A DNA stretch of 64,000 bases from Gemmatimonadaceae bacterium (GCA_035455745.1 DATIEP010000023.1:16628-80627); one strand, 5' to 3'. Positions 1-64,000 are shown, counted from the stretch's first letter. The notes: a model not told the origin generated them from the letters alone. Translations and numbers: made by a program.

Positions 1-1873
1 GGGCCTGCACGAGCAGATTCGTGACGGTGTCGGCGCGATCGACGCCGCCATGCAGGCGCAGGAGGTCGAGTCGGATCGACTCGAGCGCGGCGATGGCGCG
101 AGCGAAATCGTGCCGCGCGGCGTCGCGCTGCTCCCGCAAACGCGCGACCGTTTCGCGCGCGCGGTCGTCCGGCGACGGGGCCAGGTCGCGCTCCGCTTCT
201 GCCGTGAGGCGGCTCAGCTCGTCGACGTGCTCGCGGACGCGGACGGCGCGTTCCTCCAGCCGGCGGACGAGCTCGGGCAGCGCGCGCAGGTCTCGTCGAT
301 AGGCGGTGGGCAGCGCGGCAAACAGCTCGCTCGCCGCCAGGCCGAGCGCGGCTTCCGTTGGGCGGTTGAGCAGTTGTGGCGCGGCCGAGCGTCCGCGCCC
401 GAGCATCGCGCCGACCCAGGCGCCTAACCGGGAGCCCCAGAAGGTCGTGCGGCCGAACCCGATCATGGCCGACCGCAGCTTTCTGGGCAGCAGGCGCACG
501 CCGAGCGCGTTGCTCAGCAGCAGACTCCCGCCGGCGGGCCACGCCGTCAGCTTGAACACGAATTCCAGCATCTGCGGTCCATTCGTGCGGCCGACATCAG
601 CAGCCGACACGATCACGCCCGCGAACGCGGCGACCGACGCCCAGGTGAACCAGCGTAGCAGGCGCGGCCCGACAGCGGTCTCCGTCGATTCGAACGCCAT
701 CTCTTCACGCCGAATGTCCCGCCAGCGCGCCAGCGCGGTGCGAAGATCTGCCACCGAGTAGCCGGCGTGGAGCGCGCGCCAGGTCTGTCGCAGGTGGAAC
801 GCTGCCAGGGTGACTAGCGGCACGGCCGTCAGCACGGACGTCACGACCAACTGTTGCAGCCGAAAGCCGCGCATTGCGTGCGACGCGCCGAACCGCAGGA
901 CGAACCACGCATCGATCGCGGTGACAATGCCGGCAACACCGGCCCACGTCACGAGCAGGGCGCGCGCGGGATTCTGTGTCGTGAGCCAGGCCCGCAGCGG
1001 AATGGGCAGCTCGCTTCGCTCGATGGACGCGGGCTCGAGCGCGTCGGCGAGCGCTTCGCCGCCGGGAAAACGCCCCGCCGGGTCGCGATGGAGGCAGCGG
1101 TCGATGGCGCGCGCGAGTGCCGGCGGCACGCCGGGCGACACGCGCTCGACGGGCCGCGCGGCTTCGCCTAACTGCTTGCCCGCCAGTGCGGCGACCGACG
1201 TCGCGTCGTACGGCAGCCGGCCGGACACGATGTAGTAGCCGACGACACCGAGGGCGTAGAGGTCCGAGCGGCCGTCGACTTCCGTGCCGGCCAACTGCTC
1301 GGGACTCGCGAAGGCCGCGGTCCCCATCGCCCGCTCGGTTTCGTCCTCCGTCTCGGCCTGCCGCACGCGCGCGATGCCGAAGTCGGTGACTAACGCGCGG
1401 CCGGTGCCCGTCTCGAGCAGAATGTTGTCGGGCTTCACGTCGCGATGGATCACCCCCCGCCCGTGGGCGTACGCGAGCGCCCACGACACTTCGCGCAGCA
1501 CTCGTGCTGCGACGGCGGCGCCGAGCTGTCCCTGCGTGCGCACGCGATGGCCCAGGGTTTCGCCGTCGACGTACGCCATGACGAAGAACACGAAGCCGCC
1601 CGCTTCACCGACGCGATGGATCGGCACGATGTTCGGGTGCGAGAGCTGGGCAGCCGTTCTGGCTTCGCGGAGGAAGCGCTCGCGGAAGCCCGGGCGTTCG
1701 GCGAGCGCCGCCGGGAGCACCTTGATCGCGACGAGGCGCTCGAGCTGCACTTCGCGCGCGAGATACACGATGCCCATGCCGCCGCGTCCGAGCTCGCGCT
1801 CGAGCGAGTACTCGCCCGCGAGCGCCTGCTGCACGGCGAGAAACTCGGCATCGATCGGAAGTGCGTTGTCCAT
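1..1873 (-). CDS. Ser/Thr protein kinase (Hanks type) with C-terminal membrane-associated region; 3' end runs off the window
   Basis: Absent from the ORF track because there is no stop inside the window. Hand translation from ATG (complement of 1871-1873) gives MDNALPIDAEFLAVQQALAGEYSLERELGRGGMGIVYLAREV. VIHRDVKPDNILLE lies near 1414-1455 and VTDFGIA near 1375-1395. The frame is still open at bases 2-61 (LRLHGGVDRADTVTNLLVQA). The middle was not checked codon by codon. Confidence 0.8.
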   Translation of the reverse strand, partial: MDNALPIDAEFLAVQQALAGEYSLERELGRGGMGIVYLAREVQLERLVAIKVLPAALAERPGFRERFLREARTAAQLSHPNIVPIHRVGEAGGFVFFVMAYVDGETLGHRVRTQGQLGAAVAARVLREVSWALAYAHGRGVIHRDVKPDNILLETGTGRALVTDFGIARVRQAETEDETERAMGTAAFASPEQLAGTEVDGRSDLYALGVVGYYIVSGRLPYDATSVAALAGKQLGEAARPVERVSPGVPPALARAIDRCLHRDPAGRFPGGEALADALEPASIERSELPIPLRAWLTTQNPARALLVTWAGVAGIVTAIDAWFVLRFGASHAMRGFRLQQLVVTSVLTAVPLVTLAAFHLRQTWRALHAGYSVADLRTALARWRDIRREEMAFESTETAVGPRLLRWFTWASVAAFAGVIVSAADVGRTNGPQMLEFVFKLTAWPAGGSLLLSNALGVRLLPRKLRSAMIGFGRTTFWGSRLGAWVGAMLGRGRSAAPQLLNRPTEAALGLAASELFAALPTAYRRDLRALPELVRRLEERAVRVREHVDELSRLTAEAERDLAPSPDDRARETVARLREQRDAARHDFARAIAALESIRLDLLRLHGGVDRADTVTNLLVQA

Positions 1874-1944
1874 CAGGGCTCCGCGTTGGTCCCGCTCGTG
1901 CTCCGCGTCCGATGTTTTCCGTCGGGCTCCGGGCGCCTGGCGGG

Positions 1945-4900
1945 TCAGTCGACTTTGGCCTCGCTGTCGCCTAACCGCGCCAACCGTCTCCGCACATCGG
2001 CCACCTGCGGCTGCAGCTCGGGATCGGCGGTCCGCCACAGATCGATGAAGGCCGCGTAGTGGGACGCAGCCTTGTCGCGCTCGCCCTTGGCCTCGTACAG
2101 CTCGCCTAACCGCTTGTGGATCCCGGCCAGCACGATCGCATCGCCGAAACCGATGTGATCGCCGGACGCGCCGTACAGCTTCGACCAGAACGGTGTGGCG
2201 AGGTACGCTTCGTATTCCGCGATCGCCGAGTCGGCCTCGGACGACGCGTCGAACGCCCGCGCGAGCACGACATGAATGCAGGGCGCGCACTCGTCAGACG
2301 GCAGGCCGTCGTACCACACGTCGGCCTGACGGAACTGCGACAGCGCGGTCTTCCCGTCGCCGCGCGCGAGCGCGATCGAGCCCAACGCGCCGTGTAGTCC
2401 GCGCGACTTGAGGCGCATGTCACTCGTGTCCGGGTCGTCCCGCCGGAACTGCGCGATACTCGCCGCCGCCTTGTCCGGATCCCCGGCGATGGCATAGGCC
2501 ATCGCGACGTCGAAATACGGACGGTCGGCCAGCGGAATCCGCGACAGCGGCACGTCGGACACCGCCGCATCCACTTGGCGCACTGCGTTAGGCGACGGTC
2601 CGTGGAACCACGCATCGATGATCGCCGTGGTCAGCGCATCCTCGAGGCGGTCGCCGTCAGCCCGCGGCAGAACGGCCGCCTGCTCGCGCAACGCGCGCAC
2701 CCCATCGGCGAGATGGCCGTGCAGGAGATCCACTGCGGCACGGGCGCCGTGAGCCCATCGCTGCAAGACCGGATCACCGCTCCGCGAGAAGCTGTCGACG
2801 AGCGCCCGGAACGCCGCCGTGTCGCCGGCCGCACGGCGCACCAACACCTCGTGCATCTTGAACCCATGCGAATCGGGCGCGCGTCGCCGCCAGTACTCCA
2901 GTGTCTTCTCGGCGCCGCGCACATTCCCCTGGTCGAGCTGCAGCTCGATCGTGTTGCCAATCGCGATGCCCGGCTGCACGCCCTGACTTCTCGACATCGC
3001 GTCGAGCGATTCGGCCTTGGCATAGAGGCGCTCCGTGCGCAGCACCTCGCCGGCATTGATCGGGGCGACGGTCGAATCGCCGCGCTGGACGAGCGCCATG
3101 TACGCAGCGAGCGCGCGTGCGCGATCCTGGTGCGGACCTTCGTGAAAGTAATAGGCCTCCGTTTGCAGGCGCTCCATCTCGGGCAGACGGTCGCGCAATC
3201 GGTACGCGTGCACCAGCGCCGAATCCTGTTCGTCGCGAGAGCCGCCGCTGTTGCCGATCGCGACCGCGAGCAGCCTCCACGCGGACGCAAAGTTCGAGTC
3301 CGCAGCCACTGCTTGGCGCGCGAACTGTACCGCCGCCTCTACGTTTTCTGCTCCGTTCGCACGACTGCCCTCGCTGAACAGGCGGAGCGCCTCGAGCGAT
3401 GCCGTCGTCGCCTGCGCGAGCGGCGGACTGGCCTGCACGCTGCGCAGCGACTCGCCGATTTTTCCGCGCAGCTCCCTCGCCAACTTGTCCGTCGCGTCGA
3501 TCAGCCCGCGCGGCCCGTCACCGGATTCGCGAAAGGAGGCGAGCTCGAGCCCGGAGTCGGCGCTGACTAACCGGAGCGTGATGATGTAGCCCGTGCCGAC
3601 GCCCGTCACTTCGCCGTCGACCACGGCCTTCACGCCTTCGCGCTGCGCCATCTCGCGCGCCGTCGCCAGGTCGAGGCGTGTGTTGGCCGGACGCTCCATC
3701 CGGCGCAGCTCAGCGGCGATCTGCGGCGCCGGCACGAGCGAGATCATCGACGACTGCGCGAGCGCCGCCCGCACCGCGTCGCTGGCCACGGCGCCGAGCG
3801 CCGTGTCCGTGTGCTGCACGCCGAAGTCGGCGATGATCACCGGCTCGCGCGCGGTGAACGTGCCGCGCGCCAGCAACGAGCCCGCCGGACCGATGCCTAA
3901 CGCACGGAGCAGCATGAACGCGCCCACGAGGAGCACGAACGCGCCCACCGCGTAGGCGCCGCCGAACATGGTTCTGCGCCACGACAGGTGCGGACTCGCC
4001 CTGAGCGCCAGATGCGCCATCGTGCCGTGCGCCGGCACACTCGGCGTCCCGCCGGGCGTGAACGTGGGCGAGGTCGTGAGCGCCCGGCGCGCGACGAATT
4101 GGGCATACCCCGTGAACAGGATCACCGGCAGGCCAAGCGCCATGACGATGAGCGAGCCCGGGAACACCCAGTCGGGAAGCCCGATGCCGACGATCGCCGC
4201 CTTCGCCAGCACCGCGACGGCAACGAACGCCACCACGTAAATCATGAGCGCCCGCCGAACCATCGCGCGCCCGCCAATGAGGATGCCGGGCAGCGCCCGT
4301 TGGCGCGACGAGTCGCCCGTCGAAATCGCGTCCAGCGTCGCCAGGATCTCATCGGCCGACCGGGGACGCGCGCCCGGCTCCTTCTCGAGACATTGCGACA
4401 CGAGCCGCGCCAATTCCGGCGGCGTATCCGGACGTTCGTCGGTCACCGGCTTCGGCGTCTCGCTCATGTGCGCGGCGAGCAGCCGCTGCGGCGTTTTCGC
4501 GTCGAACGGGGGATGCCCCGTGAGCAGCTCGTACGCCATGCAGCCGAACGCATAGAAGTCGGCGCGGTGATCCGTGTTCGGATCTCCCGCCGCCTGCTCC
4601 GGCGCCATGTACGCCGGGGTGCCCAACGCCGTGCCTAACTGAGTGAGCGTGGCGCCGCGCGGGCCAGTCGCCGAGGCGGCGATGGCCTTGGCGATCCCGA
4701 AATCCGTGACCATCGCCGCGCCGCGCGAAAGCAGCACGTTGTCGGGCTTGATGTCGCGATGCACCACGCCGCGCTCGTGCGCGTAGGCGAGCGCCCGCGC
4801 CACGTCGCGAAGTATCGAAATGACCTCGGCGATGGGCAGCGCCCCGAGCGCCAGCCGCGCACGCAGACTCTGCCCTTCCACGTACGGCATGGTGAAGTAC

Positions 4901-5160
4901 GGCGCGCCCCTGCTGTCGCCCGCACTCAACACGGGAACGATGTTCGCCTGCTGAAGCGAGGCGGCCAACAGGATCTCACGCTCGAACCGATCCGCGCTCA
5001 ACCCCTGCATGAGCTCGGGCGCCAGGACCTTGACGACGACCTTGCGGTTGAGTCGCAGCTCGTTGGCCACGAACACGCGCGACATGCCGCCGCCCCCGAG
5101 CTCACGCTCGAGGGTGTACGTGGTGCGCAGTGTGTCCTGGAGTTGGTCCCGCAGATCCAT
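1945..5160 (-). CDS. Ser/Thr protein kinase with transmembrane segments and long TPR-like C-terminal domain
   Basis: 1071-aa ORF with GGGGMSRVF, VVVKVL, HRDIKPDNVLL, DFGIAK and GTPAYMAPEQ. Hydrophobic stretches include MIYVVAFVAVAVLAKAAIVGIGL and GAYAVGAFVLLVGAFMLL. The C-terminus is helical-repeat. Confidence 0.9.
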   Translation of the reverse strand: MDLRDQLQDTLRTTYTLERELGGGGMSRVFVANELRLNRKVVVKVLAPELMQGLSADRFEREILLAASLQQANIVPVLSAGDSRGAPYFTMPYVEGQSLRARLALGALPIAEVISILRDVARALAYAHERGVVHRDIKPDNVLLSRGAAMVTDFGIAKAIAASATGPRGATLTQLGTALGTPAYMAPEQAAGDPNTDHRADFYAFGCMAYELLTGHPPFDAKTPQRLLAAHMSETPKPVTDERPDTPPELARLVSQCLEKEPGARPRSADEILATLDAISTGDSSRQRALPGILIGGRAMVRRALMIYVVAFVAVAVLAKAAIVGIGLPDWVFPGSLIVMALGLPVILFTGYAQFVARRALTTSPTFTPGGTPSVPAHGTMAHLALRASPHLSWRRTMFGGAYAVGAFVLLVGAFMLLRALGIGPAGSLLARGTFTAREPVIIADFGVQHTDTALGAVASDAVRAALAQSSMISLVPAPQIAAELRRMERPANTRLDLATAREMAQREGVKAVVDGEVTGVGTGYIITLRLVSADSGLELASFRESGDGPRGLIDATDKLARELRGKIGESLRSVQASPPLAQATTASLEALRLFSEGSRANGAENVEAAVQFARQAVAADSNFASAWRLLAVAIGNSGGSRDEQDSALVHAYRLRDRLPEMERLQTEAYYFHEGPHQDRARALAAYMALVQRGDSTVAPINAGEVLRTERLYAKAESLDAMSRSQGVQPGIAIGNTIELQLDQGNVRGAEKTLEYWRRRAPDSHGFKMHEVLVRRAAGDTAAFRALVDSFSRSGDPVLQRWAHGARAAVDLLHGHLADGVRALREQAAVLPRADGDRLEDALTTAIIDAWFHGPSPNAVRQVDAAVSDVPLSRIPLADRPYFDVAMAYAIAGDPDKAAASIAQFRRDDPDTSDMRLKSRGLHGALGSIALARGDGKTALSQFRQADVWYDGLPSDECAPCIHVVLARAFDASSEADSAIAEYEAYLATPFWSKLYGASGDHIGFGDAIVLAGIHKRLGELYEAKGERDKAASHYAAFIDLWRTADPELQPQVADVRRRLARLGDSEAKVD

Positions 5161-5295
5161 CGTGTGGTGCGGCGTCCGCGAAGGGTCGCAAAAACTTACG
5201 GCGACACGGCTGGTGTCGCCAGCGTTTTCGCCTCGCCGGCCTCGGTTAGGCTGTACGCCGCATCGTCACGCCGCCGGACGTCGCAACAGCCTGCG

Positions 5296-6555
5296 TCAGG
5301 AAGACAGCGACGGTAACCCGGGCCTGGCATCCGGAATCTGTCCCTCGGACCGCTTCGCGGCGACGGCCAGATACTCCGCGATCATGCTGCGCCCGATCGT
5401 CTCCCAGGAGTACACCCGCTCCACCGTCGAGCGGCCGGAGCGGCCGAGCCGGTTGCGCAGTGATTCGTCATTCAATACCGCAATCACGGCGTCCGCAAAT
5501 CCGCGCGGGTCGTCGCGCACCAGGATGTTGTCACCATCGACTGCCGACAGTCCCTCGCAGCCGATCGATGTGCTGACCACCGCTTTCCCCATGGCCCATG
5601 CGTCCAGAATCTTGATCCGCGTGCCGCCTCCGACCCGAATCGGAGCGATACAGCACCCCGCCTCTCCGACGTACGGCCGCGTGTCTTCGACGTAGCCGGT
5701 CGCCTCGATGCCGAAGTCGCGCCGGAATGCGCCTCTTTCCTCCGCCGTCGTGCTCCCGACCCACACGACGTCCGGTGATGCGCCCCGCTCCCGAATCAAC
5801 GGGAGAATCGCTTGGCCAAAGTGCCGCATGGCGTCGGCGTTCGGAAACCAGCTGCTGCCGCCGACAAAAACGACGGTGTTGGCAGCTCCGCCGCCCTGCG
5901 GGCGGAAGTAGTCCACGTCTACTCCATTCGGGACAACGGCGACACGCGACCCAGGCGCCACGGCGCGAAGCGCATCGCGGTCGACGTCCGACACCGTCAC
6001 GTTCAAATCGACACGCGGGCACCAGCGACGTTCCTCGCGCCTCATCAACTCGGCCTGATACGCGATGTAGCCGCGCATCCACGGCGCGCGCTGTTGTTGG
6101 GCGCGTCTCCTGAGCAACGCCGATTGCACATCGTGATGGACGCAGATCAGCGGCACGTCGCCGACGAGCGGGAAATAGTCGGACAGGTCGAGACTGTCCG
6201 CATGAGCAAGCGCGAAGTGCTCGGAGGCGAGAAGGTCGACGAGACGCGCGCGGAATTTGTGCGAACGGTACGCGAACGCGGTGTAGACGCGCCGGCTCAC
6301 CGAGCTATGAAGATGGTCGCGCAGCAAGCGCAGCCGCGAATGCTCCTGTGGAATCGGGAATGCTTCCACACGCGCCAAGCCTCGAAGCCCCGCGACCGCC
6401 GAGTCGCTGCTGGTCTTCGAGCGATAGAAGCAAAGCGCGACGATATCGAACGCGATCGCGAGCTGCTTGAGGACGTTGTACGTGCGAACCTTGACTCCGC
6501 CGTCGGGCGGGAACGGCAGCGTTTGCGACAGAACGAGAAGCTTCGGCCGCGTCAC
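5296..6555 (-). CDS. Glycosyltransferase, family 4 (GT-B fold)
   Basis: 419-aa ORF with a GT4-like C-terminal half (VVFVGGSSWFPNADAM, GGTRIKILDAWAMGKAVVSTSIGCEGL). Its ATG overlaps the stop of the upstream gene (ATGA at 6552-6555). Confidence 0.8.
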   Translation of the reverse strand: MTRPKLLVLSQTLPFPPDGGVKVRTYNVLKQLAIAFDIVALCFYRSKTSSDSAVAGLRGLARVEAFPIPQEHSRLRLLRDHLHSSVSRRVYTAFAYRSHKFRARLVDLLASEHFALAHADSLDLSDYFPLVGDVPLICVHHDVQSALLRRRAQQQRAPWMRGYIAYQAELMRREERRWCPRVDLNVTVSDVDRDALRAVAPGSRVAVVPNGVDVDYFRPQGGGAANTVVFVGGSSWFPNADAMRHFGQAILPLIRERGASPDVVWVGSTTAEERGAFRRDFGIEATGYVEDTRPYVGEAGCCIAPIRVGGGTRIKILDAWAMGKAVVSTSIGCEGLSAVDGDNILVRDDPRGFADAVIAVLNDESLRNRLGRSGRSTVERVYSWETIGRSMIAEYLAVAAKRSEGQIPDARPGLPSLSS

Positions 6556-8618: not shown

Positions 8619-8689
8619 TGTATGCGTCGTATCGGGAGTCGGAGAGGCGTTAGCAAGTTACAAGCCCGCGGTGCGACGCGTTTCGGGGC

Positions 8690-9007
8690 TCATTCCTTCA
8701 CGCCCGAGGCCGCGAGCACGTCATAGTGCACGACGAACGGCTCGCGTTCCAACAGATAATCGTCGTCCTCCGGGTAGTAGCGCGCCCGGTCGTAGGCCTC
8801 GCCGGCGAACGCGCGGATCGCGTCGAGCGACTCCCAGAGTGTGAGCAGCAAGAAGTGCGTCACATCACCGTCGTCGCGGCGCAGCACGAATACGCCGCGG
8901 TTGCCGGGGGTCGCGGCGTAGTCGGAGAGTCCCGTACGCAGCAGATACTTGTGATAGGCGTCGGCTTTCTTGGCCGGCACGCGGCCGTGCCAGGTTCGTC
9001 CAATCAT
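8690..9007 (-). CDS. Antibiotic-biosynthesis-monooxygenase (ABM/Dabb) family protein
   Basis: 105-aa ORF. The pattern WHGRVP...FLLLTLWESLDAIRAFAGE...VVHYDV is typical of small ABM-domain proteins. Confidence 0.6.
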   Translation of the reverse strand: MIGRTWHGRVPAKKADAYHKYLLRTGLSDYAATPGNRGVFVLRRDDGDVTHFLLLTLWESLDAIRAFAGEAYDRARYYPEDDDYLLEREPFVVHYDVLAASGVKE

Positions 9008-9032
9008 GGGCCCTCGATGGCTAGCGTTAGGC

Positions 9033-9503
9033 TTAGAGGTGCCGGGCGAGATGCACCGTGCCGGCGAGCAGCGCGATGAACACGACGAACAGCAAGATGC
9101 CGCGCACCCAGTTGCCCGTCGCCCACTGGCGAGCCGCGCGGCGCAACACCGCCGGATCCTGCGGCTCCGGCGACGTGAACATCACAGCGAGTCTCGGGTA
9201 GTGGAACGTGTACGTGATCACGTCGGCCACGATCAGCGCGATGAGGGCGACGAGAAATGCGTTGTCGCCGGGCTTGGCCCAGTCGAACACCACGGCGCCG
9301 AGCGTGAGCAGCTGTGCGGCAGGGGCGACGACGCGGAAGAACCGCGCCGGCGTGGCGCCCGCCAGAAACTGCCGCGCGAGTGCGATGGACGCGGGAATGT
9401 CCCGCTCGTAGTTGGGCGCCATGACGACGGTCTCGTACCACGTCGCGCCGAAGAGCAGCGCGACGGCGATGAGCGCGATGACACCGAGGACGTGGGGAAG
9501 CAT
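9033..9503 (-). CDS. DUF1772-like (anthrone-oxygenase family) membrane protein
   Basis: Start moved to MLPHVLGVIALIAVALLFG (complement of 9501-9503). Four hydrophobic helices and a C-terminal WATGNWVRGILLFVVFIALL. The stop TAA is immediately followed by GCCTAAC. Confidence 0.5.
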   Translation of the reverse strand: MLPHVLGVIALIAVALLFGATWYETVVMAPNYERDIPASIALARQFLAGATPARFFRVVAPAAQLLTLGAVVFDWAKPGDNAFLVALIALIVADVITYTFHYPRLAVMFTSPEPQDPAVLRRAARQWATGNWVRGILLFVVFIALLAGTVHLARHL

Positions 9504-9617
9504 CGATGGGTTTGCGTTAGGCAACGAGGACGGCGCGGCGGCGATGCACGACGCCGGAAACGGTCGCCGCTGAATGTGGCACCGGTCCCTTGCCCTGCGC
9601 AAATGCGGATGTCGGGG

Positions 9618-10133: not shown

Positions 10134-10310
10134 CGTTGCCACACGGAGCGCGAGAGGCGCGTTCTTTGTTAGGCGATCGCCGGCCGCGGCTGCCGTATCG
10201 GGACGCACGCCGGAGCCGGCCACCTCGTTCCGGGGCAGGTCTCCCGCTGATCGCTTGTCAGGCCCGCGCATTGGTTGAAAGTTATGCGTCGCGACCAACC
10301 ACACGGAACC

Positions 10311-12842: not shown

Positions 12843-12872
12843 GCAGCGATCACCACGCCGGCGGATCTGCGA

Positions 12873-48972: not shown

Positions 48973-49024
48973 CGGGCCGATGCCGGCGGTCGCCGACCGC
49001 CGTGGTGAACGGGGCGCCGCACGC

Positions 49025-49192: not shown

Positions 49193-49273
49193 GCCGCCTC
49201 CCGTGCAGTGACTGATCTGTCCAGGGGGGGTCCCGTCCCTGATCAAAGCTGCCCAACCGCCTGACGCTACAGC

Positions 49274-54680: not shown

Positions 54681-54880
54681 TTGTGGGCGATCGTGATGGC
54701 GGCGGTTAGGCGCCGGGATACACGCTCCGCATGGGCGCCCGTGTGGGGCGTCCTGGACGGTTAGGGACGCGGCGCCGCAGCGCGACGCCATGGTCTGATA
54801 TGTGTATCGCTTTTTAGACGCGTGTTCGCGCGTTGTCAACCTCTGCGGTGGTCACGCGGCCTGACGAGTCCAACGCGTGC

Positions 54881-55324: not shown

Positions 55325-55358
55325 GGGTCCCCCTGTCGTTAGGAATGACGCGCTTCGC

Positions 55359-57815: not shown

Positions 57816-57875
57816 CGGCCGATCGTCTCCCAGGTGCGCGTCGTCACGTCCGGACCGAACGTCTTGGCGATGAGC
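57654..57875. repeat. Left copy of the duplicated DUF1697-3'end / permease-5'end junction
   Basis: 57654-57707 matches 62417-62470 (50/54). 57797-57875 matches 62471-62548 (about 74/78). The 89 nt at 57708-57796 are missing from the right copy. Confidence 0.8.
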
Positions 57876-58071
57876 CTCGAATTTCCCGGCATCGCGCCGC
57901 AAGGGCGGTATCGGCACTGATCGCACGGGTCCCATGCACAATCTCGTTGATGCGCCGGGCCGGCACGCTCATGTCCTTGGACAGTCGATACTGCGAAATG
58001 GCCAAGGGCCCGAGAAAGTCCAGCGCGAGCACTTCGCCCGGGTGAATCGGAGCCAATTTGCGCTTTGCCAT
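57844..58071 (-). pseudogene. higA: HigA-family antitoxin, C-terminally truncated at the repeat boundary
   Basis: MAKRKLAPIHPGEVLALDFLGPLAISQYRLSKDMSVPARRINEIVHGTRAISADTAL is typical HigA. After about 57886 the reading frame runs into the duplicated DUF1697 3' segment. Confidence 0.6.
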
Positions 58072-58360: not shown

Positions 58361-58462
58361 GTCGATCGAACGTCCCAGTTCAGCTGCACGTGAGCTTTAT
58401 TAGGCGCTTGGCCAAGCCGTGGCAATCATTCGATCGCTTGTCAGCTGCAACGTTCGTTAGGC
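58361..58462 (-). repeat. attC-like palindrome with degenerate 3' box (P8)
   Basis: Coding strand: GCCTAAC-GAACG-TTGCAGCTGACAAGCG ... CACGTGCAGCTGAACTGGGA-CGTTC-GATCGAC, 102 nt. The 5-nt spacers pair perfectly, and the inner boxes share the CAGCTG core. It starts 7 nt after the RES stop. Confidence 0.5.
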
Positions 58463-58469
58463 GGCTTGC

Positions 58470-58931
58470 TCAGCGGAGCAAACGAGGATCGAAGTCGTAC
58501 ACAGAGATGGAATCGACTGTAAGCCGGCCAAAGTGTGCGTGCTCCGGATTGATGAGAATGTTGAATCCTCCGTCAACAATCACGCTGGGGACTCGCAAGG
58601 CCAAAGAGCGTCCGGACGTGATCCACTCATCGCCGACAGTCTGAACTGACGAAGGGACTGGCGAAACCTTCCAGTCTTTCGGCAACGCACCTGGAGCGAG
58701 ATCCTCCACAAGGGAGTCAGGCACCGTCGCCGAGATCAGCGAGTATCCAACTGGTGATCCGCCGCCTCCACTCAGATGAACCAGAACCTCCAACACGGCG
58801 AGCGCAGAGTTGCCTGACGCGTAGGCGACACGCGTCCCACGGCTGTTCCATCGCGCCCCGTACAGTCGAGCGCCCTCGCCGTTGAACGCGGTAGCGGCAT
58901 ACCGAGTCTTGGTTAGGCGCCAAACGCGCAT
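58470..58931 (-). CDS. RES-domain toxin (NAD+-degrading family)
   Basis: MRVWRLTKTRYAATAFNGEGARLYGARWNSRGTRVAYASGNSALAVLEVLVHL carries the R..E..S signature. Confidence 0.85.
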   Translation of the reverse strand: MRVWRLTKTRYAATAFNGEGARLYGARWNSRGTRVAYASGNSALAVLEVLVHLSGGGGSPVGYSLISATVPDSLVEDLAPGALPKDWKVSPVPSSVQTVGDEWITSGRSLALRVPSVIVDGGFNILINPEHAHFGRLTVDSISVYDFDPRLLR

Positions 58932-58934
58932 CGC

Positions 58935-59420
58935 CTAGGTCGGAATTCCGTGAGCCAACCGGCCAATCAAGCTCTCTACCTCAATGGCTCCAACATCGGT
59001 CGATGCAAAGTCGATTGGCGTTCGGCCTCCAAGCGCCTTGACAGGGTTGGTAAGCCAGCGTTGCGCGGCATCCGCGCTTCCTTCGAACAACTCGATTGCG
59101 CGGGCAACGATTCGCGACATGCGAACCAAGCGATCTGTTTCGTCGCGCGCGAAGCGCCCACTCTCCTTTCGTCTTGCAAGTGTGCGTTCAGGAATCTCGG
59201 CCACTTGCGCGAGAACGCGATATGGGAGGTCCGTATTGCGATGAAACCTCTCAAACGCGGCGTACGTGAGCCCGCGCCGAATGTGTTCGACAACGTACAG
59301 AGGATCGTAGTTTCGCAGGCCGAATAGCGCGACGTAGTAATGGCCTGCTCGATGGCCTGCTTCCTGATGACTCAGAAGCTCGGCGATATCGGCTGGGATC
59401 TTACGGGCTGTGCTTACCAT
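58935..59420 (-). CDS. Xre/MbcA/ParS-type antitoxin (DUF2384)
   Basis: Start at MVSTARKIPADIAELL. The C-terminus AAQRWLTNPVKALGGRTPIDFASTDVGAIEVESLIGRLAHG is the typical toxin-binding domain. A Shine-Dalgarno aggagg precedes the ATG. Confidence 0.8.
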   Translation of the reverse strand: MVSTARKIPADIAELLSHQEAGHRAGHYYVALFGLRNYDPLYVVEHIRRGLTYAAFERFHRNTDLPYRVLAQVAEIPERTLARRKESGRFARDETDRLVRMSRIVARAIELFEGSADAAQRWLTNPVKALGGRTPIDFASTDVGAIEVESLIGRLAHGIPT

Positions 59421-59434
59421 GCCGCCTCCTGGCT

Positions 59435-59466
59435 GCCATATGGCGTAACTTACAACGCCATATGGC
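59435..59466. promoter_or_regulatory. Perfect 11-bp inverted repeat, candidate operator of the Xre-RES module
   Basis: gccatatggcg (59435-59445), a 10-nt loop, then cgccatatggc (59456-59466), beginning 15 nt upstream of the antitoxin ATG. Confidence 0.45.
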
Positions 59467-59487
59467 AACTGCCAAGGCGCGAGCCGA

Positions 59488-59637
59488 CTAGCCTCCTAGG
59501 CGAAATTGCAGGGAACGCCGAACAGTCGCCAGGTCATCTCCATAGTGAAGGCGGACAAACTCGAAGACCTCGCGAGGCGCGTGGTCATGTTGGGTCATGT
59601 CGGCGAGGAGATCTTCTTCAAGTTGGGAGAGTACCAT
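59488..59637 (-). CDS. Possible 49-aa ORF at the head of the Xre-RES cassette
   Basis: Hand translation gives MVLSQLEEDLLADMTQHDHAPREVFEFVRLHYGDDLATVRRSLQFRLGG*. The ATG lies 9 nt after the 3' box of P9. It is too short for the ORF track. Confidence 0.25.
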   Translation of the reverse strand: MVLSQLEEDLLADMTQHDHAPREVFEFVRLHYGDDLATVRRSLQFRLGG

Positions 59638-59646
59638 TTGCACAGC

Positions 59647-59741
59647 CAGAAACGCCCGAGTTCAGCTGGCCGGCGGCCACGTGGACCGTGCATGCGGTCG
59701 GAGCGTTAGGCTGTCACGTCAGCCCGAACGAGCCGTTAGCC
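59647..59741 (-). repeat. attC-like palindrome with degenerate 3' box (P9)
   Basis: Coding strand: GGCTAAC-GGCTC-GTTCGGGCTGAC ... GGCCAGCTGAAC-TCGGGC-GTTTCTG, 95 nt. The inner boxes pair about 9/12 with one bulge. Confidence 0.45.
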
Positions 59742-59780
59742 CGAAGGCGAGCCGACGGGTGGGTTGCGTCCCCATCCCCA
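59721..59780. repeat. Non-coding copy of the 60-nt block that forms the Imm50-like gene 3' end at 60407-60466
   Basis: 54/60 identical. It would read SPWGWGRNPPVGSPSG* but is preceded by an in-frame stop. Confidence 0.8.
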
Positions 59781-59837
59781 GGGTGATCATCGACCGAAAC
59801 GCTTAGCCATAGCCACAAGAGGAGGCAACGACTCAGC

Positions 59838-60242
59838 TTATGAAGCGGCAGCCAGCGTCTTGAACGGTACCGTGGCCACGATCCCCCTGACCTGCTTGCG
59901 GAGATCCGCGTCAAGGGTGACGAACGCGTCAGCCTGGAGCTTGGCGACGGCGATGTACTCCGCCTTACCAGTATCTGCCCACCCCAGTTGCTCCGCCATC
60001 TTCCACGCGACAGCCCGTGAGACGCGGTCGCCAAGAAGGCGCACGCGCATCGATGTTATTCCATCAAGGAGTGCCGTCGCATCGTCTTGGCTCACCTCTC
60101 CCCGACGATATGCTCGGTACACAATCGATAGCGCATCAGATCGCAAGACATTGGGGCCAACAAGCTGGTGCGCGCTCGGCACCACGATCCCTTCACGAAC
60201 CAGCCGGACGGCAACCTCCGCGTCGATACCATAACGAGTCAT
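59838..60242 (-). CDS. PIN-domain-like protein (VapC-like), no cognate antitoxin gene seen
   Basis: Start at MTRYGIDAEVAVRLV. The C-terminus GKAEYIAVAKLQADAFVTLDADL resembles the D-x-YIA-A...L-T-D region of PIN toxins. Confidence 0.45.
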   Translation of the reverse strand: MTRYGIDAEVAVRLVREGIVVPSAHQLVGPNVLRSDALSIVYRAYRRGEVSQDDATALLDGITSMRVRLLGDRVSRAVAWKMAEQLGWADTGKAEYIAVAKLQADAFVTLDADLRKQVRGIVATVPFKTLAAAS

Positions 60243-60275
60243 AGCCGTTGCGTACCTCAAGTCATTTCGTGGTCG

Positions 60276-60376
60276 GCATAACGCCGAGTTCACCCGCACG
60301 CGCACATCAACAAGATGCGGCCGCGCAGCGGCCGCCGTCCCGAACCGTGCTTGTCGGGTGCAACGCTTCGTTAGGC
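60276..60376 (-). repeat. attC-like imperfect palindrome (P7)
   Basis: Coding strand: GCCTAAC-GAAGC-GTTGCACCCGACAAGC ... GCGTGCGGGTGAAC-TCGGC-GTTATGC, 101 nt. The inner boxes pair 13 bp with 1 mismatch and 2 bulges. The loop contains the GC hairpin gcggccgc-tgc-gcggccgc (60317-60335). The element ends 33 nt before the PIN ATG. Confidence 0.65.
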
Positions 60377-60406
60377 CTCAGCGAGGATGATGCCTGCACG
60401 CGCTCG

Positions 60407-60466
60407 AGCCCTAACGAGTCGTTAGCGCGTATGCGAGCCAACGGGTGGGTTGCGTCCCCATCCCCA
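60407..60466. repeat. 60-nt junction block (coding copy, 3' end of the Imm50-like gene)
   Basis: See 59721-59780. It includes the mini hairpin ctaacg-agt-cgttag (60411-60425) around the stop codon. Confidence 0.8.
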
Positions 60467-60895
60467 CGGCTCGACCCTGCGGACTACTGCGTCGTTGCAG
60501 CTGAAGCGGCCCCCGACGCCGTGGGAGCTCGCCAGCACCACCTCGAACTTTGCCCACTCCAGCTGATCGCGTGTCCGATCCATGATCGCCAGCTCCCAGA
60601 GTGCATTCTGGTCGTTGAACTCCGAGAGCTCAAGCTGCGCGATCCGTCGGAACTCGAACGTGACAAGGCACTCCTTCGACAGGACGTATGTGCCATTCGG
60701 CTCGACCCCGGGACCGGCCAGGTACGCGTAGACTGCCAGCGTGAGTGTCGGCCCCGCGTTCTCGCCAAACCCGCCGCGGTCGAGCACGAGCTGCACAACC
60801 TGGGCATCGTGAAACGTGGGCCAGTGGCCGAACCACTCGACGACGAGCTGTGCACCGTCGATGGACGGTGCGATTGGAGAATCGGATGGCGGCAC
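60422..60895 (-). CDS. Imm50-like immunity protein (polymorphic-toxin immunity family)
   Basis: 157-aa ORF. WFGHWPTFHDAQVVQLVLDR matches the FG-x-WP-x-FHDA signature I associate with Imm50-family proteins. No toxin gene is adjacent. Confidence 0.45.
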   Translation of the reverse strand: MPPSDSPIAPSIDGAQLVVEWFGHWPTFHDAQVVQLVLDRGGFGENAGPTLTLAVYAYLAGPGVEPNGTYVLSKECLVTFEFRRIAQLELSEFNDQNALWELAIMDRTRDQLEWAKFEVVLASSHGVGGRFSCNDAVVRRVEPWGWGRNPPVGSHTR

Positions 60896-60916
60896 GGGCG
60901 AAGGAACGTGTGTGCG

Positions 60917-61040
60917 GGCTAACGCGTAAGGTCAGCTGCGGCGGCGGCATTCGCAGGCGCCAGACAATCAGATAATGCGATGCACCAGCCAAGCGCGCCA
61001 GTATGCATTCAGCGCCGTCCGCTGCAGCGCCTCGTTAGAC
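60917..61040 (-). repeat. attC-like imperfect palindrome (P6)
   Basis: Coding strand: GTCTAAC-GAGGC-GCTGCAGCGGACGG ... CCGCCGCCGCAGC-TGACCTTACGC-GTTAGCC, 124 nt. The inner boxes pair about 10/14. It ends 21 nt before the Imm50-like ATG. Confidence 0.55.
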
Positions 61041-61136
61041 GGAGCCCCTCAGGTGTACGGAGGCGCCGACCACCCGCGGAAGCGTGCGAAGCGGACGGGC
61101 AAAGCGATCCAGTTCTGCGTTCGACGCCAACCCTCG

Positions 61137-61586
61137 CTATTCGTCGTCCGGGATGCCGCGAAGCGCCTCAAGAAATGCGCGCGAACCAGCGCCGTCAGGC
61201 AGGCCCCGCAGGGCCTTGAGCATCGCAACGGGACCGCGCCCGTGCTCGAGACCCCAACTGTGTCCTCGAGCGAACGCGGCGTAGATCTCGTGACGCATCA
61301 CCCGATGGATCTCCCGGCCGAGTTGGCGTCTGGCCCGCCGCTGACGCCAGTAGCGCTCGGGATTCGCTGTTGCTTCCGCCATCAGGCGGGTCTCTCGGCG
61401 CGATAACCGGCGGAGGGGGTGGCCTAAAACGTCGGCCCACCGGGCGCCAGGCTTGAGCGCCCGCATGCGTTGCAGCAACGCGTCGCGGCCATCACCGGCC
61501 ATGGCGAGAGCGCCGAGGCGATCCGGGATCAGCCCAAGGCGCTCCGCTTCCGCGTCGAATGCCTCGATAAACTCCTCCGAAGTCAT
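61137..61586 (-). CDS. Hypothetical protein
   Basis: 149-aa ORF. The ATG overlaps the stop of the upstream gene (ATGA at 61583-61586). No family recognised. Confidence 0.5.
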   Translation of the reverse strand: MTSEEFIEAFDAEAERLGLIPDRLGALAMAGDGRDALLQRMRALKPGARWADVLGHPLRRLSRRETRLMAEATANPERYWRQRRARRQLGREIHRVMRHEIYAAFARGHSWGLEHGRGPVAMLKALRGLPDGAGSRAFLEALRGIPDDE

Positions 61587-62314
61587 CTCTCCCCCACGAT
61601 GCGTCTCGGCGCCACGCCTAACGCCAACGTTCGGCTGCGAGCGCGCAGGAATGCGACTCCCGATGCGGCTCGGTCGCCGGGCGCGCCCGTCAGCCGCGAC
61701 AATCCGTTAGGCATCGGCTCGCGCCCCTCGCTCACGGCGCGCGGCGCGGGCTGCCGAGCCGCCGCGCAGCCGCGCGCCATCCTTAGGTGGGTTGTCAGCT
61801 GCAACGATCGATGTGCGTGTTCCGCTGCGATCAAGGCGCGACTCGCGGCAATCCGGAACTCCTGAATGGGGAACTGCGTCCCAGCGCAGAACTCCTCTAT
61901 CACAGCCAGTGCAGAATCGTAGAGGTCGCTCCGGCGCAGAGCGAGAACCAGTTCCGCGTACCCGAGGTAGCCATCGTCGCCCACCTGGGGGAAGGCGCGT
62001 CGGGCCAAGAAGGCACGTTGGTAGGAATCGAGGGCTTCTGATGCCCGCCCGAGATCGACGAGCGATTCGGCGCGGAGCGCGAGTGCGGAAGCGAGTTGAC
62101 ATGGATCGGGGAATTCAAGAATGAGCCGATCCAGGAGTCCGAGCGCAGCACGCGTCAGATGTTCGTCGCCCGCCTCAAATAGATGCGCCGCCTGAATACG
62201 CAGGTACTGCGCCTTACGGTGAGCTCCGCGTGAGCGAGCGAGTCTCGCATTGAACTCGGCCGCATCGTGGTCACTCCACGTCGATCGACGAAACCACTCA
62301 ACCTTTTCCGTCAT
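61583..62314 (-). CDS. Helical-repeat (TPR-like) hypothetical protein
   Basis: Start moved to MTEKVEWFRRSTWSDHDAAEFNARL (complement of 62312-62314). The ORF-track N-terminus (MREGGGLALGIGRSTAVFIVAGAL) is the decayed permease 5' fragment of the right repeat. Confidence 0.5.
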   Translation of the reverse strand: MTEKVEWFRRSTWSDHDAAEFNARLARSRGAHRKAQYLRIQAAHLFEAGDEHLTRAALGLLDRLILEFPDPCQLASALALRAESLVDLGRASEALDSYQRAFLARRAFPQVGDDGYLGYAELVLALRRSDLYDSALAVIEEFCAGTQFPIQEFRIAASRALIAAEHAHRSLQLTTHLRMARGCAAARQPAPRAVSEGREPMPNGLSRLTGAPGDRAASGVAFLRARSRTLALGVAPRRIVGER

Positions 62315-62416
62315 CGTGATCTGGTGCCGTATACCGCCCGAGCTAACGTGCGGAGCCGCAGGGTCAGAGCAACACGTTGACACAACATCGCCGCACCGCA
62401 TCATCATTTCATTGCG

Positions 62417-62548
62417 GAGCGCACCGGCGACGATGAACACCGCCGTCGATCGACCGATGCCTAACGCGAGCCCGCCGCCTTCACGCACCTGCCGATCGTC
62501 TCCCAGGTGCGCGTCGTCACGTCCGGACCGAACGTCTTGGCAATGAGC
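62417..62548. repeat. Right copy of the duplicated DUF1697-3'end / permease-5'end junction
   Basis: Carries the intact DUF1697 3' end plus a permease start remnant (MREGG..LALGIG.STAVF) with an 89-nt internal deletion relative to 57654-57875. Confidence 0.8.
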
Positions 62549-62988
62549 GCCATGAACGTCGGGGTGCCCGGCGTCGGCACGTACGCCGTGAAGGCCTCGC
62601 GTCCGCTGACCGCGAGAATGCGCACCCCGCCGAGCTCGATGGGCAGCGCGGCTGTCGCGCGGTGTGCGGCTCGCGCAAACGTGACGACGCGGCGGGCGTT
62701 AGGCGCGAGGCGGAACGGCGCGTACGGATCGTCGTCGAGCATCGCTTGTAAGTCCGACACAGGGCGCACGATCGTATAGAACGAGCGGCCAAGCGTCTTT
62801 GACATCGCCGCCTCCGCCTTTCGCTCGAGCGCCGACTCCGATGCGGCGCGCGCGCTGAAGACGACGTTGCCGCTGCCCAGCACCGTCGCCACATCCGCGA
62901 ACGCCGCCGATTCGAACGCCCGCTTGAGCGCCGGCATCTTCGCATTCACCGGCATTACGCCGCGAAGAAACGCTACATAGCGTAGCAC
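62461..62988 (-). CDS. DUF1697 domain protein
   Basis: GTG start preceded by aggagg. MLRYVAFLRGVMPVNAKMPALKRAFESAAFADVATVLGSGNVVF is typical of DUF1697. The stop TAG is in GTTAGGC. Confidence 0.8.
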   Translation of the reverse strand: MLRYVAFLRGVMPVNAKMPALKRAFESAAFADVATVLGSGNVVFSARAASESALERKAEAAMSKTLGRSFYTIVRPVSDLQAMLDDDPYAPFRLAPNARRVVTFARAAHRATAALPIELGGVRILAVSGREAFTAYVPTPGTPTFMALIAKTFGPDVTTRTWETIGRCVKAAGSR

Positions 62989-63424
62989 GATTTCCTCCTA
63001 TGGCACGATCTCGATTCGAACTCGAATGTCGGGAGCTCGTGTATTCGCTTCTGCTTACGCGGAATCATTAGTTCCACTCATTATATGGGACAGCCGCACG
63101 ACCGCACCGCCCTTTCACGCGCACGCGCGTCAGTCAGGCCTGCTCCCAGTAAACGCCCGTCTCGAGCGGCTCCCCGCTCATCAGCGCTTGAAAGCGGGTC
63201 GGGGTAGCTCCCGATCTGTACTAACGCGTCGCTCGCTGCGTCTTCCAGCGGCTCACGAACGAACTGTTTTGAAGACCTTCCAGGCCGGCCACGGCGACAT
63301 GGAGGTGGGCGACAACCCCGCCTCCTCCAGCATGTCCACCAGTCGCATGTACGCGTGTGCGGTTTCCGCCCGGAGTCTCCGAATCAGGAGTGTCGCCTGG
63401 CTTGCGCCTAACGACTACCGGCGG

Positions 63425-63835
63425 CTACGTCGGCAAGCTGTATCGCAACACGAACGGGAAGTCGGCGCCATGCCCAACGGAAGACGCTCCTTCCCCCGTC
63501 AGGCCTCGAAGGTCGCCGGTGCCCGAGCCACGGACGACGGTGTACGACTCGTTCGCCTGCTTACCGTCGAACTCGCCGCTCCGTTGGAGGACGAATGTTC
63601 CCGACTTGCTACCGATCCGGCCAGTGAAGCGCTCCAACCCGACGAACAGCGCCGTGCCATCGCTTCGATACATCATCACGTACTCGACCCGGCTGTCGCC
63701 TTCGATGTCCCCGGTGAAGCTCTTCTCGACGGTCGCCTTGGTCATCTTCGGCAGATTCGGGCCTTCGCTGTACGGCGTTTCGTCCCAACTCTTGATCGCG
63801 AAGCGCGCATTCGCAGTGGCGTTCATGGTCGGCAT
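63425..63835 (-). CDS. DUF3224 domain protein
   Basis: 136-aa ORF: FAIKSWDETPY...FTGDIEGDSRVEYVMMY...GRIGSKSGTFVLQRSG...GSGTGDLRGLTGEG. Confidence 0.7.
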   Translation of the reverse strand: MPTMNATANARFAIKSWDETPYSEGPNLPKMTKATVEKSFTGDIEGDSRVEYVMMYRSDGTALFVGLERFTGRIGSKSGTFVLQRSGEFDGKQANESYTVVRGSGTGDLRGLTGEGASSVGHGADFPFVLRYSLPT

Positions 63836-63862
63836 TCCCGGGCAGAGGTCGGATGCACGTCC

Positions 63863-64000
63863 TTAGAATGTGAGATTGCGCGTAATGCGCCAGTGGCCAT
63901 CGGCTTCGCGGCTCCACACCGTGAGGTAGGCCCCGCCCGAGCGCACCGACGGGCCGGTTCCGCTCGCGGGCGCCTGCGCGATCCACGCGTGGCCCCACTC
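63863..64000 (-). CDS. NTF2-like (DUF4440-type) protein, 5' part outside the window
   Basis: Hand translation of the last 45 codons gives EWGHAWIAQAPASGTGPSVRSGGAYLTVWSREADGHWRITRNLTF*, with stop TAA at 63863-63865. Confidence 0.5.
   Translation of the reverse strand, partial: EWGHAWIAQAPASGTGPSVRSGGAYLTVWSREADGHWRITRNLTF

Follow-up and report, generated by a model that had tools for sequence, protein, structure and literature searches.

Why should a bacterium write the same seven letters into its chromosome every 0.7 kb, mostly inside genes of unrelated families? The question is raised by a 64,000-nt stretch of DNA from a Gemmatimonadaceae bacterium (GC content 66.1%; hereafter the window, at its full length), in which the heptamer GTTAGGC/GCCTAAC (hereafter the word), whose full form is the octamer CGTTAGGC/GCCTAACG, recurs throughout. 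We found the word to be hyper-abundant, subject to selection or drive at the DNA level, restricted to one clade, evenly spaced, neutral in orientation, scarce in foreign genes and plentiful in phage contigs, and to form part of real attC sites, the recombination sites of integron cassettes. We tentatively propose that CGTTAGGC may be a lineage-specific 'self' tag on DNA, of the type of the uptake signal sequences (USS) of Pasteurellaceae, the DNA uptake sequences (DUS) of Neisseriaceae or the cyanobacterial highly iterated palindrome HIP1.

Abundance of the word

Counting starts on the plus strand over the whole window gave 48 copies of GTTAGGC and 39 of GCCTAAC, 87 in sum, at a mean distance of 732 bp. 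This reproduces the hand count of the original prediction, which had been made from the sequence alone; 84 of its coordinates are exact and three are shifted by one, the corrected starts being 30096, 47017 and 27207 (previously 30095, 47016 and 27206). The 61 copies it had reported as reaching the octamer were also recovered (34 + 27). A zero-order model predicts 7.8 heptamers in the window and an order-2 Markov model 1.3 octamers, while 100 dinucleotide-preserving shuffles of the window yielded 1.40 ± 1.15 octamers (maximum 5) against the 61 observed. An observed-to-expected ratio near one, which the original prediction had named as a sign against a true excess, appears only with a maximal-order Markov model (87 observed, 84.8 expected heptamers), a test that is circular and uninformative inside the window because the nested hexamers and pentamers are almost wholly derived from the word. 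Suitable baselines are low-order models, together with an external one from relatives that lack the word.

An alignment of all 87 copies showed that conservation beyond the heptamer is limited to one base on either side, giving the extended form Y-GCCTAAC-G, or equivalently C-GTTAGGC-R; apart from these two adjoining bases, flank information is at most 0.13 bits. Because there are no conserved flanks, the word is an isolated one and not a repeat family. A dispersed element of the repetitive extragenic palindromic or miniature inverted-repeat transposable type was ruled out by the unconserved flanks and by the fact that the copies are not mainly intergenic. A scan of the window against Rfam returned no matches.

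Lineages that carry the word

Relatives were found by a search with the 1071-aa Ser/Thr kinase encoded in the window (1945–5160, minus strand), which placed the source in Gemmatimonadaceae and returned 73 loci; about 200 kb of sequence from the carrier clade was read, along with scattered soil and phage contigs. The word occurs at 13–19 copies per 10 kb in L001–L006, L008, L030 and L038, and its count is zero in L007 and L009, whose kinase is 77% identical in amino acids to that of the window, the same as for L005 and L006. In nearly all other Gemmatimonadota loci the density is about zero. In the kinase tree the carriers form one clade, to which L007 and L009 are sister; L038, also word-rich, is counted separately from it. 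Carriers have 107 octamers per 100 kb, whereas 571 kb from relatives without the word, similar in GC content, gave 0.35 per 100 kb, a contrast of about 300-fold.

Two loci stand out, L033 with an intermediate density (9 words in 20.6 kb, or 4.4 per 10 kb) and L038 with the highest (44 words in 23.6 kb). At position +9 after GCCTAACG, L038 favours A or C and the window clade C or G, a dialect-like difference, and together the two loci suggest lineages at different stages or with different dialects. Candidates for a dispersed word of another spelling in further Gemmatimonadales loci were rejected as merely tandem heptamers or octamers: telomere-like (GGGGTTA)n and (GGGCTTA)n in L045 (10795–10880 and 12322–12365), about ten copies of the octamer GGACAGTT in L072 (2129–2210) and (CTACTCC)n arrays in L036 (135–180 and 972–1000).

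A metagenome scan recovered many independent soil contigs with the same density of stand-alone words, lying in genes for isocitrate lyase, malate synthase, AcrB, an outer-membrane efflux protein and histidine kinases, indicating that the feature is genome-wide and common in soils. The same pattern was seen in ten or more independent assemblies. In the literature on the word, on uptake sequences and on hyper-abundant k-mers we met no earlier description of a word like this, either in Gemmatimonadota or, in this spelling, in any other group.

Codon context and position of the copies

Using our own gene calls, supplemented by those of public contigs, we assigned 59 of the 87 copies to coding sequence, in agreement with the original prediction that most lie inside ordinary genes of unrelated families; six supply a TAA or TAG stop codon, eight serve as R boxes in attC sites and the remaining 14 lie elsewhere between genes. 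The coding copies occupy every stop-free frame, on either strand, reading xxG-TTA-GGC (Leu-Gly) in 31 cases, xxG-CCT-AAC (Pro-Asn) in 12, xGC-CTA-ACx (Leu-Thr) in 12 and GTT-AGG (Val-Arg) in four. All the frames previously assigned proved correct, including that of 46501, which falls in a small DUF2442 gene known from a public gene call. Within the window genes, GGC follows 34 of the 51 TTA codons and ACG follows 15 of the 43 CTA codons, while CCT-AAC encodes 13 of the 36 Pro-Asn pairs. This codon evidence shows that it is the DNA word, not the protein, that is favoured, and the frames and codon counts together indicate that the word has been written into unrelated protein families through otherwise avoided codons on either strand, as had been argued from the avoided codons before.

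Copies of the word outside attC sites are as follows (coordinates, strand, context).

422–428, minus, coding, Leu-Gly (TTA-GGC)
1166–1172, minus, coding, Leu-Gly
1969–1975, minus, kinase, Leu-Gly; present in 3 of 8 aligned clade genomes (window, L003, L008)
2104–2110, minus, kinase, Leu-Gly; kept in 7 of 8 aligned clade genomes
2587–2593, plus, kinase, Pro-Asn (CCT-AAC); kept in 8 of 8 clade genomes, sister clade CCT-CGC
3895–3901, minus, kinase, Leu-Gly; kept in 8 of 9 clade genomes
4633–4639, minus, kinase, Leu-Gly; kept in 9 of 9, adjacent wobble sites vary, sister clade CTC-GGG
5245–5251, plus, intergenic
7062–7068, minus, coding, Leu-Gly, in an island gene
9026–9032, plus, short intergenic junction of two small genes
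9516–9522, plus, intergenic
10168–10174, plus, coding, Leu-Thr (CTA-ACx)
10717–10723, minus, GH2 gene, Leu-Thr
11384–11390, plus, GH2 gene, Leu-Gly
11802–11808, plus, GH2 gene, Val-Arg (GTT-AGG)
12398–12404, minus, GH2 gene, Pro-Asn
12838–12844, plus, gives the GH2 gene its TAG stop
13454–13460, minus, intergenic or in an uncalled gene
15458–15464, plus, coding, Leu-Gly
15554–15560, plus, coding, Leu-Gly
16427–16433, plus, coding, Val-Arg
16785–16791, plus, stop codon
17005–17011, plus, coding, Leu-Thr
18021–18027, minus, coding, Leu-Gly
19408–19414, plus, coding, Leu-Thr
19512–19518, plus, coding, Pro-Asn
21037–21043, minus, helicase, Leu-Thr
22000–22006, minus, helicase, Leu-Thr
23035–23041, minus, helicase, Leu-Thr
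24484–24490, plus, coding, Leu-Gly
24833–24839, plus, stop codon
26044–26050, plus, coding, Leu-Gly
26521–26527, plus, permease, Val-Arg
26946–26952, minus, permease, Pro-Asn
27207–27213, minus, permease, Pro-Asn
27543–27549, plus, permease, Leu-Gly
28278–28284, minus, permease, Pro-Asn
30096–30102, plus, permease, Leu-Gly
30837–30843, plus, permease, Leu-Gly
31029–31035, plus, permease, Leu-Gly
31746–31752, minus, permease, Pro-Asn
31968–31974, plus, permease, Leu-Gly
33651–33657, plus, coding, Leu-Thr
34522–34528, minus, intergenic
35157–35163, minus, permease, Leu-Gly
36561–36567, minus, permease, Leu-Gly
38102–38108, plus, intergenic, cassette-like genes on either side
38179–38185, plus, intergenic, cassette-like genes on either side
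38925–38931, minus, intergenic; flank resembles an attC L'-R' half, may be an attC remnant
40778–40784, plus, intergenic
46259–46265, plus, intergenic
46501–46507, minus, DUF2442 gene, Val-Arg
47017–47023, plus, coding, Leu-Gly
47368–47374, plus, coding, Leu-Gly
47866–47872, minus, coding, Pro-Asn
48345–48351, plus, stop codon
48734–48740, plus, coding, Leu-Thr
48958–48964, minus, coding, Leu-Gly
49484–49490, plus, coding, Pro-Asn
50366–50372, plus, intergenic
50679–50685, plus, coding, Leu-Thr
50864–50870, plus, coding, Pro-Asn
51209–51215, minus, coding, Leu-Gly
51550–51556, minus, coding, Leu-Gly
52420–52426, minus, coding, Leu-Gly
52657–52663, minus, coding, Leu-Gly
53360–53366, plus, coding, Leu-Thr
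54138–54144, minus, coding, Leu-Gly
54705–54711, plus, intergenic
55357–55363, minus, stop codon
55584–55590, minus, permease, Leu-Gly
56658–56664, minus, permease, Leu-Gly
57366–57372, plus, permease, Pro-Asn
57696–57702, minus, permease, Leu-Gly
58912–58918, plus, RES toxin gene, Leu-Thr
62459–62465, minus, stop codon of the DUF1697 cassette gene
62698–62704, plus, DUF1697 gene, Pro-Asn; kept in the L004 and L005 homologues
63406–63412, minus, 16 nt past the stop of the DUF3224 gene

The permeases in this list are four paralogues of 820–890 aa (26320–28995, 29785–32463, 34584–37043 and 55359–57917), all of them dense in words; the last two were confirmed as duplicated MacB_PCD/FtsX proteins, and a small gene precedes each of the first two. 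The helicase (20172–23621, plus strand) is a 1149-aa protein combining an RNase_H_2-type nuclease domain with an AAA_11/AAA_12 helicase; a match to the Mokosh defence protein MkoA (E = 6e-42) falls in its C-terminal helicase part. A metallo-beta-lactamase-fold protein is encoded at 49274–50194 (minus strand); Anti-Pycsar_Apyc1 is included in its precomputed Pfam list, and PADLOC gave no match.

Conservation at orthologous sites

We compared the kinase gene in a codon alignment of nine clade genomes, reduced to eight in the C-terminal columns by the absence of L030. Several words occur in 7–9 of the nine genomes (7–8 of the eight C-terminally) while adjacent wobble positions vary, and the sister clade uses ordinary codons at the same sites, for example CAG-CTC-GGG against CAG-TTA-GGC. 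Lineage-specific gains were seen as well, and losses are mostly TTA to TTG. Across all orthologous genes the word was kept in 48 of 60 comparisons, with four-fold sites only about 60% identical. Where the amino acids are conserved, the word is retained at 88% of orthologous sites, compared with 40% for all other heptamers, 31% for other heptamers in the same codon phase and 6% for other Leu-Gly heptamers; the check on orthologues that the original prediction had called for thus comes out clearly above its controls. All changes at word sites in these alignments are substitutions, with zero indels, and typical ancestral sites differ from the word at two to three positions, as in CTCGGG to TTAGGC.

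Among one-mismatch neighbours of the word, only those altered at its edges (positions 1, 7 and 8) and the A-to-G decay product are enriched and none is depleted, a spectrum that a binding-energy motif would give. Of the two forces proposed earlier, selection or biased repair, the first (or a drive) fits these data; repair of the very-short-patch type fits poorly, as no neighbour is depleted.

Variation within the species amounts to only about 20 single-nucleotide polymorphisms per 14 kb. The window is 99.8% identical to the same-species contigs L074–L078 and abruptly falls to about 90–93% to the right of ~48.87 kb (about 48863–52000), with a ~233-bp indel at the junction. The drop looks like a recombination import of a divergent allele, and strains in the population would, on this sequence comparison, exchange alleles that are about 8–10% divergent.

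Spacing, orientation and gene classes

The copies are spaced more evenly than random, with a coefficient of variation of 0.74 (0.71 without attC partners) against 0.98 in simulations (P about 0.001) and 6–9 gaps shorter than 200 bp in the window where about 20 are expected; the same trend holds in every other locus. Orientation is neutral (48:39 in the window; 10:10, 14:8, 9:8 and 15:13 by quarters) and equal in most loci, syntenic ones included, which answers for the window and its syntenic loci the question of strand skew posed earlier. Core genes hold 1.42 words per kb and fill 27% of the synonymously possible sites, whereas cassette and island genes hold 0.31 per kb and fill 7%. One such segment, window 5296–8531, comprises a glycosyltransferase gene and a fused oxidoreductase/epimerase gene; it is absent from all syntenic relatives, has a single word in 3.2 kb and is probably a recent island. 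The only close inverted pairs in the window, about 100 nt apart, belong to three attC sites; the remaining two convergent pairs are wider (229 and 246 nt) and fall for the most part in coding sequence.

Phage contigs

Viral contigs were picked by two octamers 300–330 nt apart, a scan that also returned attC arrays. Several tailed-phage contigs of unrelated types, whose hosts are presumed, hold many stand-alone words in portal, head, sheath and tape-measure genes.

L113, 16 words in 13.9 kb (four in the portal gene); large terminase, portal, holin
L167, 27 words in 11.8 kb; small terminase
L192, 16 words in 14.5 kb; portal, J-like tail protein
L109, 11 words in 12 kb; major head protein, tail sheath
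L178, 9 words in 4.6 kb; virion structural protein
L090, 8 words in 4.5 kb; tape-measure protein

Beyond the two selected copies, the excess in these contigs is several-fold over the composition expectation of ~1.5 per 10 kb, and many phage genes terminate in GCC-TAA-C. The ratio of GTTAGGC to GCCTAAC is asymmetric in word-rich phage contigs, unlike in the host (10:1 in L109, 7:2 in L125, 7:20 in L167 and 5:11 in L113), and its direction relative to the structural genes differs among contigs. A restriction-modification target was rejected: avoidance would be expected, but the word is enriched in host and phage contigs.

attC sites and cassette genes

Six elements of ~100 nt in the window, all on the minus strand and each 5–55 nt past a small gene, are built like attC sites; a seventh, shorter one is listed as possible.

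40040–40137, minus, attC; R'' = GTCTAAC, R' = GTTAGCC, no exact word; 20 nt past the stop of gene 40158–40712
43323–43424, minus, attC; both R boxes are the word (43325, 43416)
43828–43925, minus, attC past an AraC-family gene; both R boxes are the word (43830, 43917)
58363–58464, minus, attC past the RES toxin gene; R'' = GCCTAAC (word 58456), R' = GTTCGAT
59640–59711, minus, possible short attC; R'' = GCCTAAC (word 59705), R' about GTTTCTG
60274–60378, minus, attC past an Imm50 gene; R'' = GCCTAAC (word 60370), R' = GTTATGC, bulged G in L''
61614–61714, minus, attC; both R boxes are the word (61616, 61706)

Each of the six combines an R'' box, which reads GTCTAAC in one element and GCCTAAC in the other five, with a conserved spacer, an L''/L' stem, a variable loop and an R' box that starts with GTT (GTTAGGC, GTTATGC, GTTCGAT or GTTAGCC), and the stems show compensatory changes (covariation) and a bulged base. 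A covariance model made from five elements retrieved the sixth at E = 1e-7 and gave one further match only, in L005, among 950 kb of other loci. By these sequence features we regard the six as genuine attC sites, five of which use the word as an R box, so that the original description of the word as the outer boxes of attC-like elements is borne out.

Cassette-type genes here encode a glyoxalase, a 3-dmu-9_3-mt family protein, an acetyltransferase, an AraC regulator, an Xre/RES toxin pair, Imm50, DUF1697 and DUF3224. Two clusters of small same-strand genes of this type were seen, at 37173–44881 and 58363–63835, the latter running on into L079 (1–6600). They look like attC clusters without an integrase, because no tyrosine recombinase or integrase was found in the window or the 7 kb past its right end. 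Over all sequence examined, phmmer with IntI1 found no intI on any word-rich contig; it returned one non-clade tyrosine-recombinase fragment (L034) and otherwise classical integron arrays in viral and metagenome contigs, and a database search with IntI1 gave proteobacterial integrases only.

A variable array of small same-strand genes, different in every relative, lies 5' of the conserved kinase (L001 1–4200, L004 1–5000, L005 5000–10300, L008 1–4200, window 5160–13300). Many of its genes terminate in GCC-TAA-C, an extra gene in L008 has inverted words on both sides, and the DUF1697 and DUF3224 cassette genes of the window have homologues in the variable array of L004 and L005. Small cassette-type genes thus shift genomic position among relatives.

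We take GTTAGGC/GCCTAAC to be the consensus integron core and inverse-core site (Hall and Stokes). Among the results of the viral and metagenome scans were many classical arrays in which GCCTAAC...GTTAGGC occur as a pair, an IntI homologue accompanying some of them; the attC spelling is therefore general, and the peculiarity of the clade is its stand-alone copies. These have no second (L) box or hairpin partner, partner scores of coding words being at background, and are therefore not recombination core sites.

Discussion

What, then, is the word for? The data ask for a protein that recognises a double-stranded motif of about 9 bp in either orientation, and for some force by which roughly one site per 0.7 kb is put in place and maintained even though codon usage suffers somewhat. 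A reader protein, its action through uptake or recombination, and what the match to the attC core may signify go beyond these observations and are inferred. To our knowledge, hyper-abundant genomic words maintained by selection have been described for few groups only, namely Pasteurellaceae, Neisseriaceae and cyanobacteria.

The likeness to USS, DUS and HIP1 drawn in the original prediction is real: the word is dense, lies equally in both orientations at even intervals, is confined to one clade and is sparse in foreign genes. As with USS and DUS, we see a short non-palindromic word, about one per kb and equally in both orientations, mostly intragenic in the least costly frames, evenly spaced, kept from one related species to the next, missing from relatives that lie outside the carriers, with lineage dialects and scarce in foreign DNA. 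Unlike them, it comes from a different phylum, has a different spelling of 7–9 bp, is known here from sequence alone, has no terminator-type inverted pairs, is rich in phage contigs and is identical to the integron core site. HIP1 (GCGATCGC) is likewise an octamer, 15- to 300-fold over-represented and patchily on or off across lineages; its function was long unknown and it has now been linked to transformation. It differs in being a palindrome recognised by two methyltransferases and in spanning a phylum, whereas CGTTAGGC is not its own reverse complement and spans a roughly genus-level clade. We know of no methyltransferase for CGTTAGGC. HIP1 is also conserved at orthologous sites, implying selection (PMC5861425). 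The word would thus seem to work like USS, DUS or HIP1, yet cannot be filed in either family.

Two further systems invite comparison. The word is identical to the consensus core and inverse core of integron attC and attI sites (GTTRRRY/RYYYAAC) and forms an R box in five of six attC sites of the window; unlike integron cores, about 77 of the 87 copies are without L box, hairpin partner or cassette context and sit at conserved positions in core genes, and, in contrast to a complete integron, no integrase was found nearby, in the window or the 7 kb to its right. Chi and the FtsK-orienting polar sequences (KOPS) are also short words over-represented genome-wide and relevant to the survival of phage DNA. 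They are strongly skewed with replication and only a few-fold enriched, whereas the word is orientation-neutral and 40- to 300-fold enriched; a polar motif of this type is ruled out by the neutral orientation.

We tentatively favour a self tag acting through natural transformation, while holding it somewhat short of an even chance. A putative sequence-specific DNA-binding component, probably of the DNA-uptake or recombination route, would read the double-stranded word in either orientation, and fragments bearing the word would be taken up or recombined preferentially. Word alleles would thereby replace wordless ones, a biased replacement amounting to molecular drive and possibly reinforced by selection, and the same process would retain existing words, until the genome settled at about one word per 0.7 kb, evenly spaced and accommodated mostly through synonymous and rare codons or stops. 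Integron cassettes would all bear the tag too, since the R boxes of the attC sites here are spelled with the same heptamer. Such a tag is the best fit: it agrees with how large the excess is, with the lack of a preferred orientation and the regular intervals, with words being kept at orthologous sites and confined to one clade that shows dialects, and with their scarcity in foreign genes. The exchange of divergent alleles between strains of the population also speaks for it. The link of HIP1 to transformation (10.1101/2024.09.10.611283; 10.64898/2026.06.24.733823) is in line with it, and DUS-poor regions mark mobile elements in Neisseria (PMC7371117), comparable to the word-poor cassette and island genes here.

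Several points weigh against this proposal. No competence genes were found in the ~200 kb of clade sequence read. Terminator-type inverted pairs as in DUS are absent from the window besides the attC sites, and a tag model gives no reason to expect a spelling exactly that of the integron core site. Unrelated tailed-phage contigs carry the word at host-like density in structural genes, and prophages of classical USS and DUS hosts tend to be tag-poor, so pure uptake drive would need long-resident, recombining prophages.

These phages are accounted for more naturally if the word acts where it stands, a 'self' tag with a protective or organising role that a host protein reads on any DNA in the cell. 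We consider this rather unlikely but the most serious of the alternatives. Such a protein might be a nuclease or a recombination machine held in check by the word (Chi-like without polarity), a nucleoid protein, or a defence system that leaves tagged DNA alone. One site per ~1 kb would be maintained by selection, which would also favour phages that imitate the host, as the dense stand-alone words in structural genes of several unrelated phage types would reflect. Even spacing and conservation at orthologous sites agree with this, cassette genes inside a tagged chromosome could stay word-poor, and Xu et al. proposed a role in chromosome structure for HIP1 (PMC5861425). Yet Chi and KOPS are strongly strand-skewed and the word is neutral (48:39) with a 40- to 300-fold excess, a system lethal to untagged DNA would be hard to acquire before tags exist, and the window holds no candidate reader gene.

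Less probable still, and in our view doubtful, is a direct integron link, in which stand-alone words are R-box half-sites read by the integron integrase or a protein derived from it, whether as points of cassette landing and exchange or as an uptake or recombination specificity recruited from the attC core. A chance match of the word to the consensus core and inverse core has odds of roughly 1 in 1000 or less, the window has six genuine attC sites of which five use the word, and cassette-type genes, many ending in GCC-TAA-C, move between positions in relatives. Transformation supplies cassettes to integrons (PMC12614218), and integrases can insert cassettes at genomic sites (10.1101/2022.09.11.507474). 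However, stand-alone words have no L box or hairpin partner, genomic attG sites need GWT only and not the full heptamer, the words arose by point substitution without indels, and intI was not found in the window, the 7 kb beyond it or any word-rich contig. Insertion into coding sequence would moreover be harmful, making enrichment there unexpected. Insertion scars as such are ruled out by the ortholog alignments, which show substitutions only.

A neutral bias of mutation or repair, such as very-short-patch repair coupled to a methyltransferase, would make and restore the word in any DNA replicating in these cells, host and phage alike, and could switch on or off with the gain or loss of one enzyme, which would fit the clade pattern. 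We regard it as very improbable. Repair of this kind corrects one position and should deplete one neighbour, and none is depleted; typical ancestral sites differ at two to three positions; even spacing and word-poor resident cassette genes would be unexpected; and very-short-patch repair yields less than a two-fold excess. That the excess is an artefact of base composition, codon usage, dispersed repeats or assembly can practically be dismissed, as the maximal-order Markov ratio near one that might speak for it is circular, shuffles give 1.4 octamers against 61, the flanks are unrelated, the pattern recurs in ten or more independent assemblies and relatives of equal GC content are essentially without the word; the shuffles and these relatives already refute it.

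The word may have practical consequences. It may be a cheap marker for assigning soil contigs and phages to the clade, and it would distort codon-usage and k-mer statistics. Primers targeted to attC end in CGTTAGSC, and genomes with that octamer on either strand at 0.7-kb intervals may give rise to off-target products when cassettes are amplified with such primers. With HS287/HS286, only 19–24% of soil cassette amplicons pass an attC filter (10.1101/2021.09.08.459516). Word-bearing genomes could contribute to the off-target share.

For the biology of the group, the word adds a case in an abundant, poorly cultured soil phylum, and the clean on/off contrast between sister lineages is the setting needed for finding the reader gene by comparative genomics. 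Its identity with the integron core could join DNA uptake and recombination with cassette exchange, a connection that, like the origin of cassettes, is open in integron biology. It is conceivable, though a long shot, that the clade has coupled genome-wide self-recognition to the integron core site, with a reader that is a relative of the integron integrase or an uptake or recombination factor tuned to the R box. If so, chromosome, phages and cassettes would share one recombination or uptake handle every 0.7 kb, and natural transformation would be tied to cassette traffic, possibly with new cassettes born from genes that end in GCC-TAA-C.

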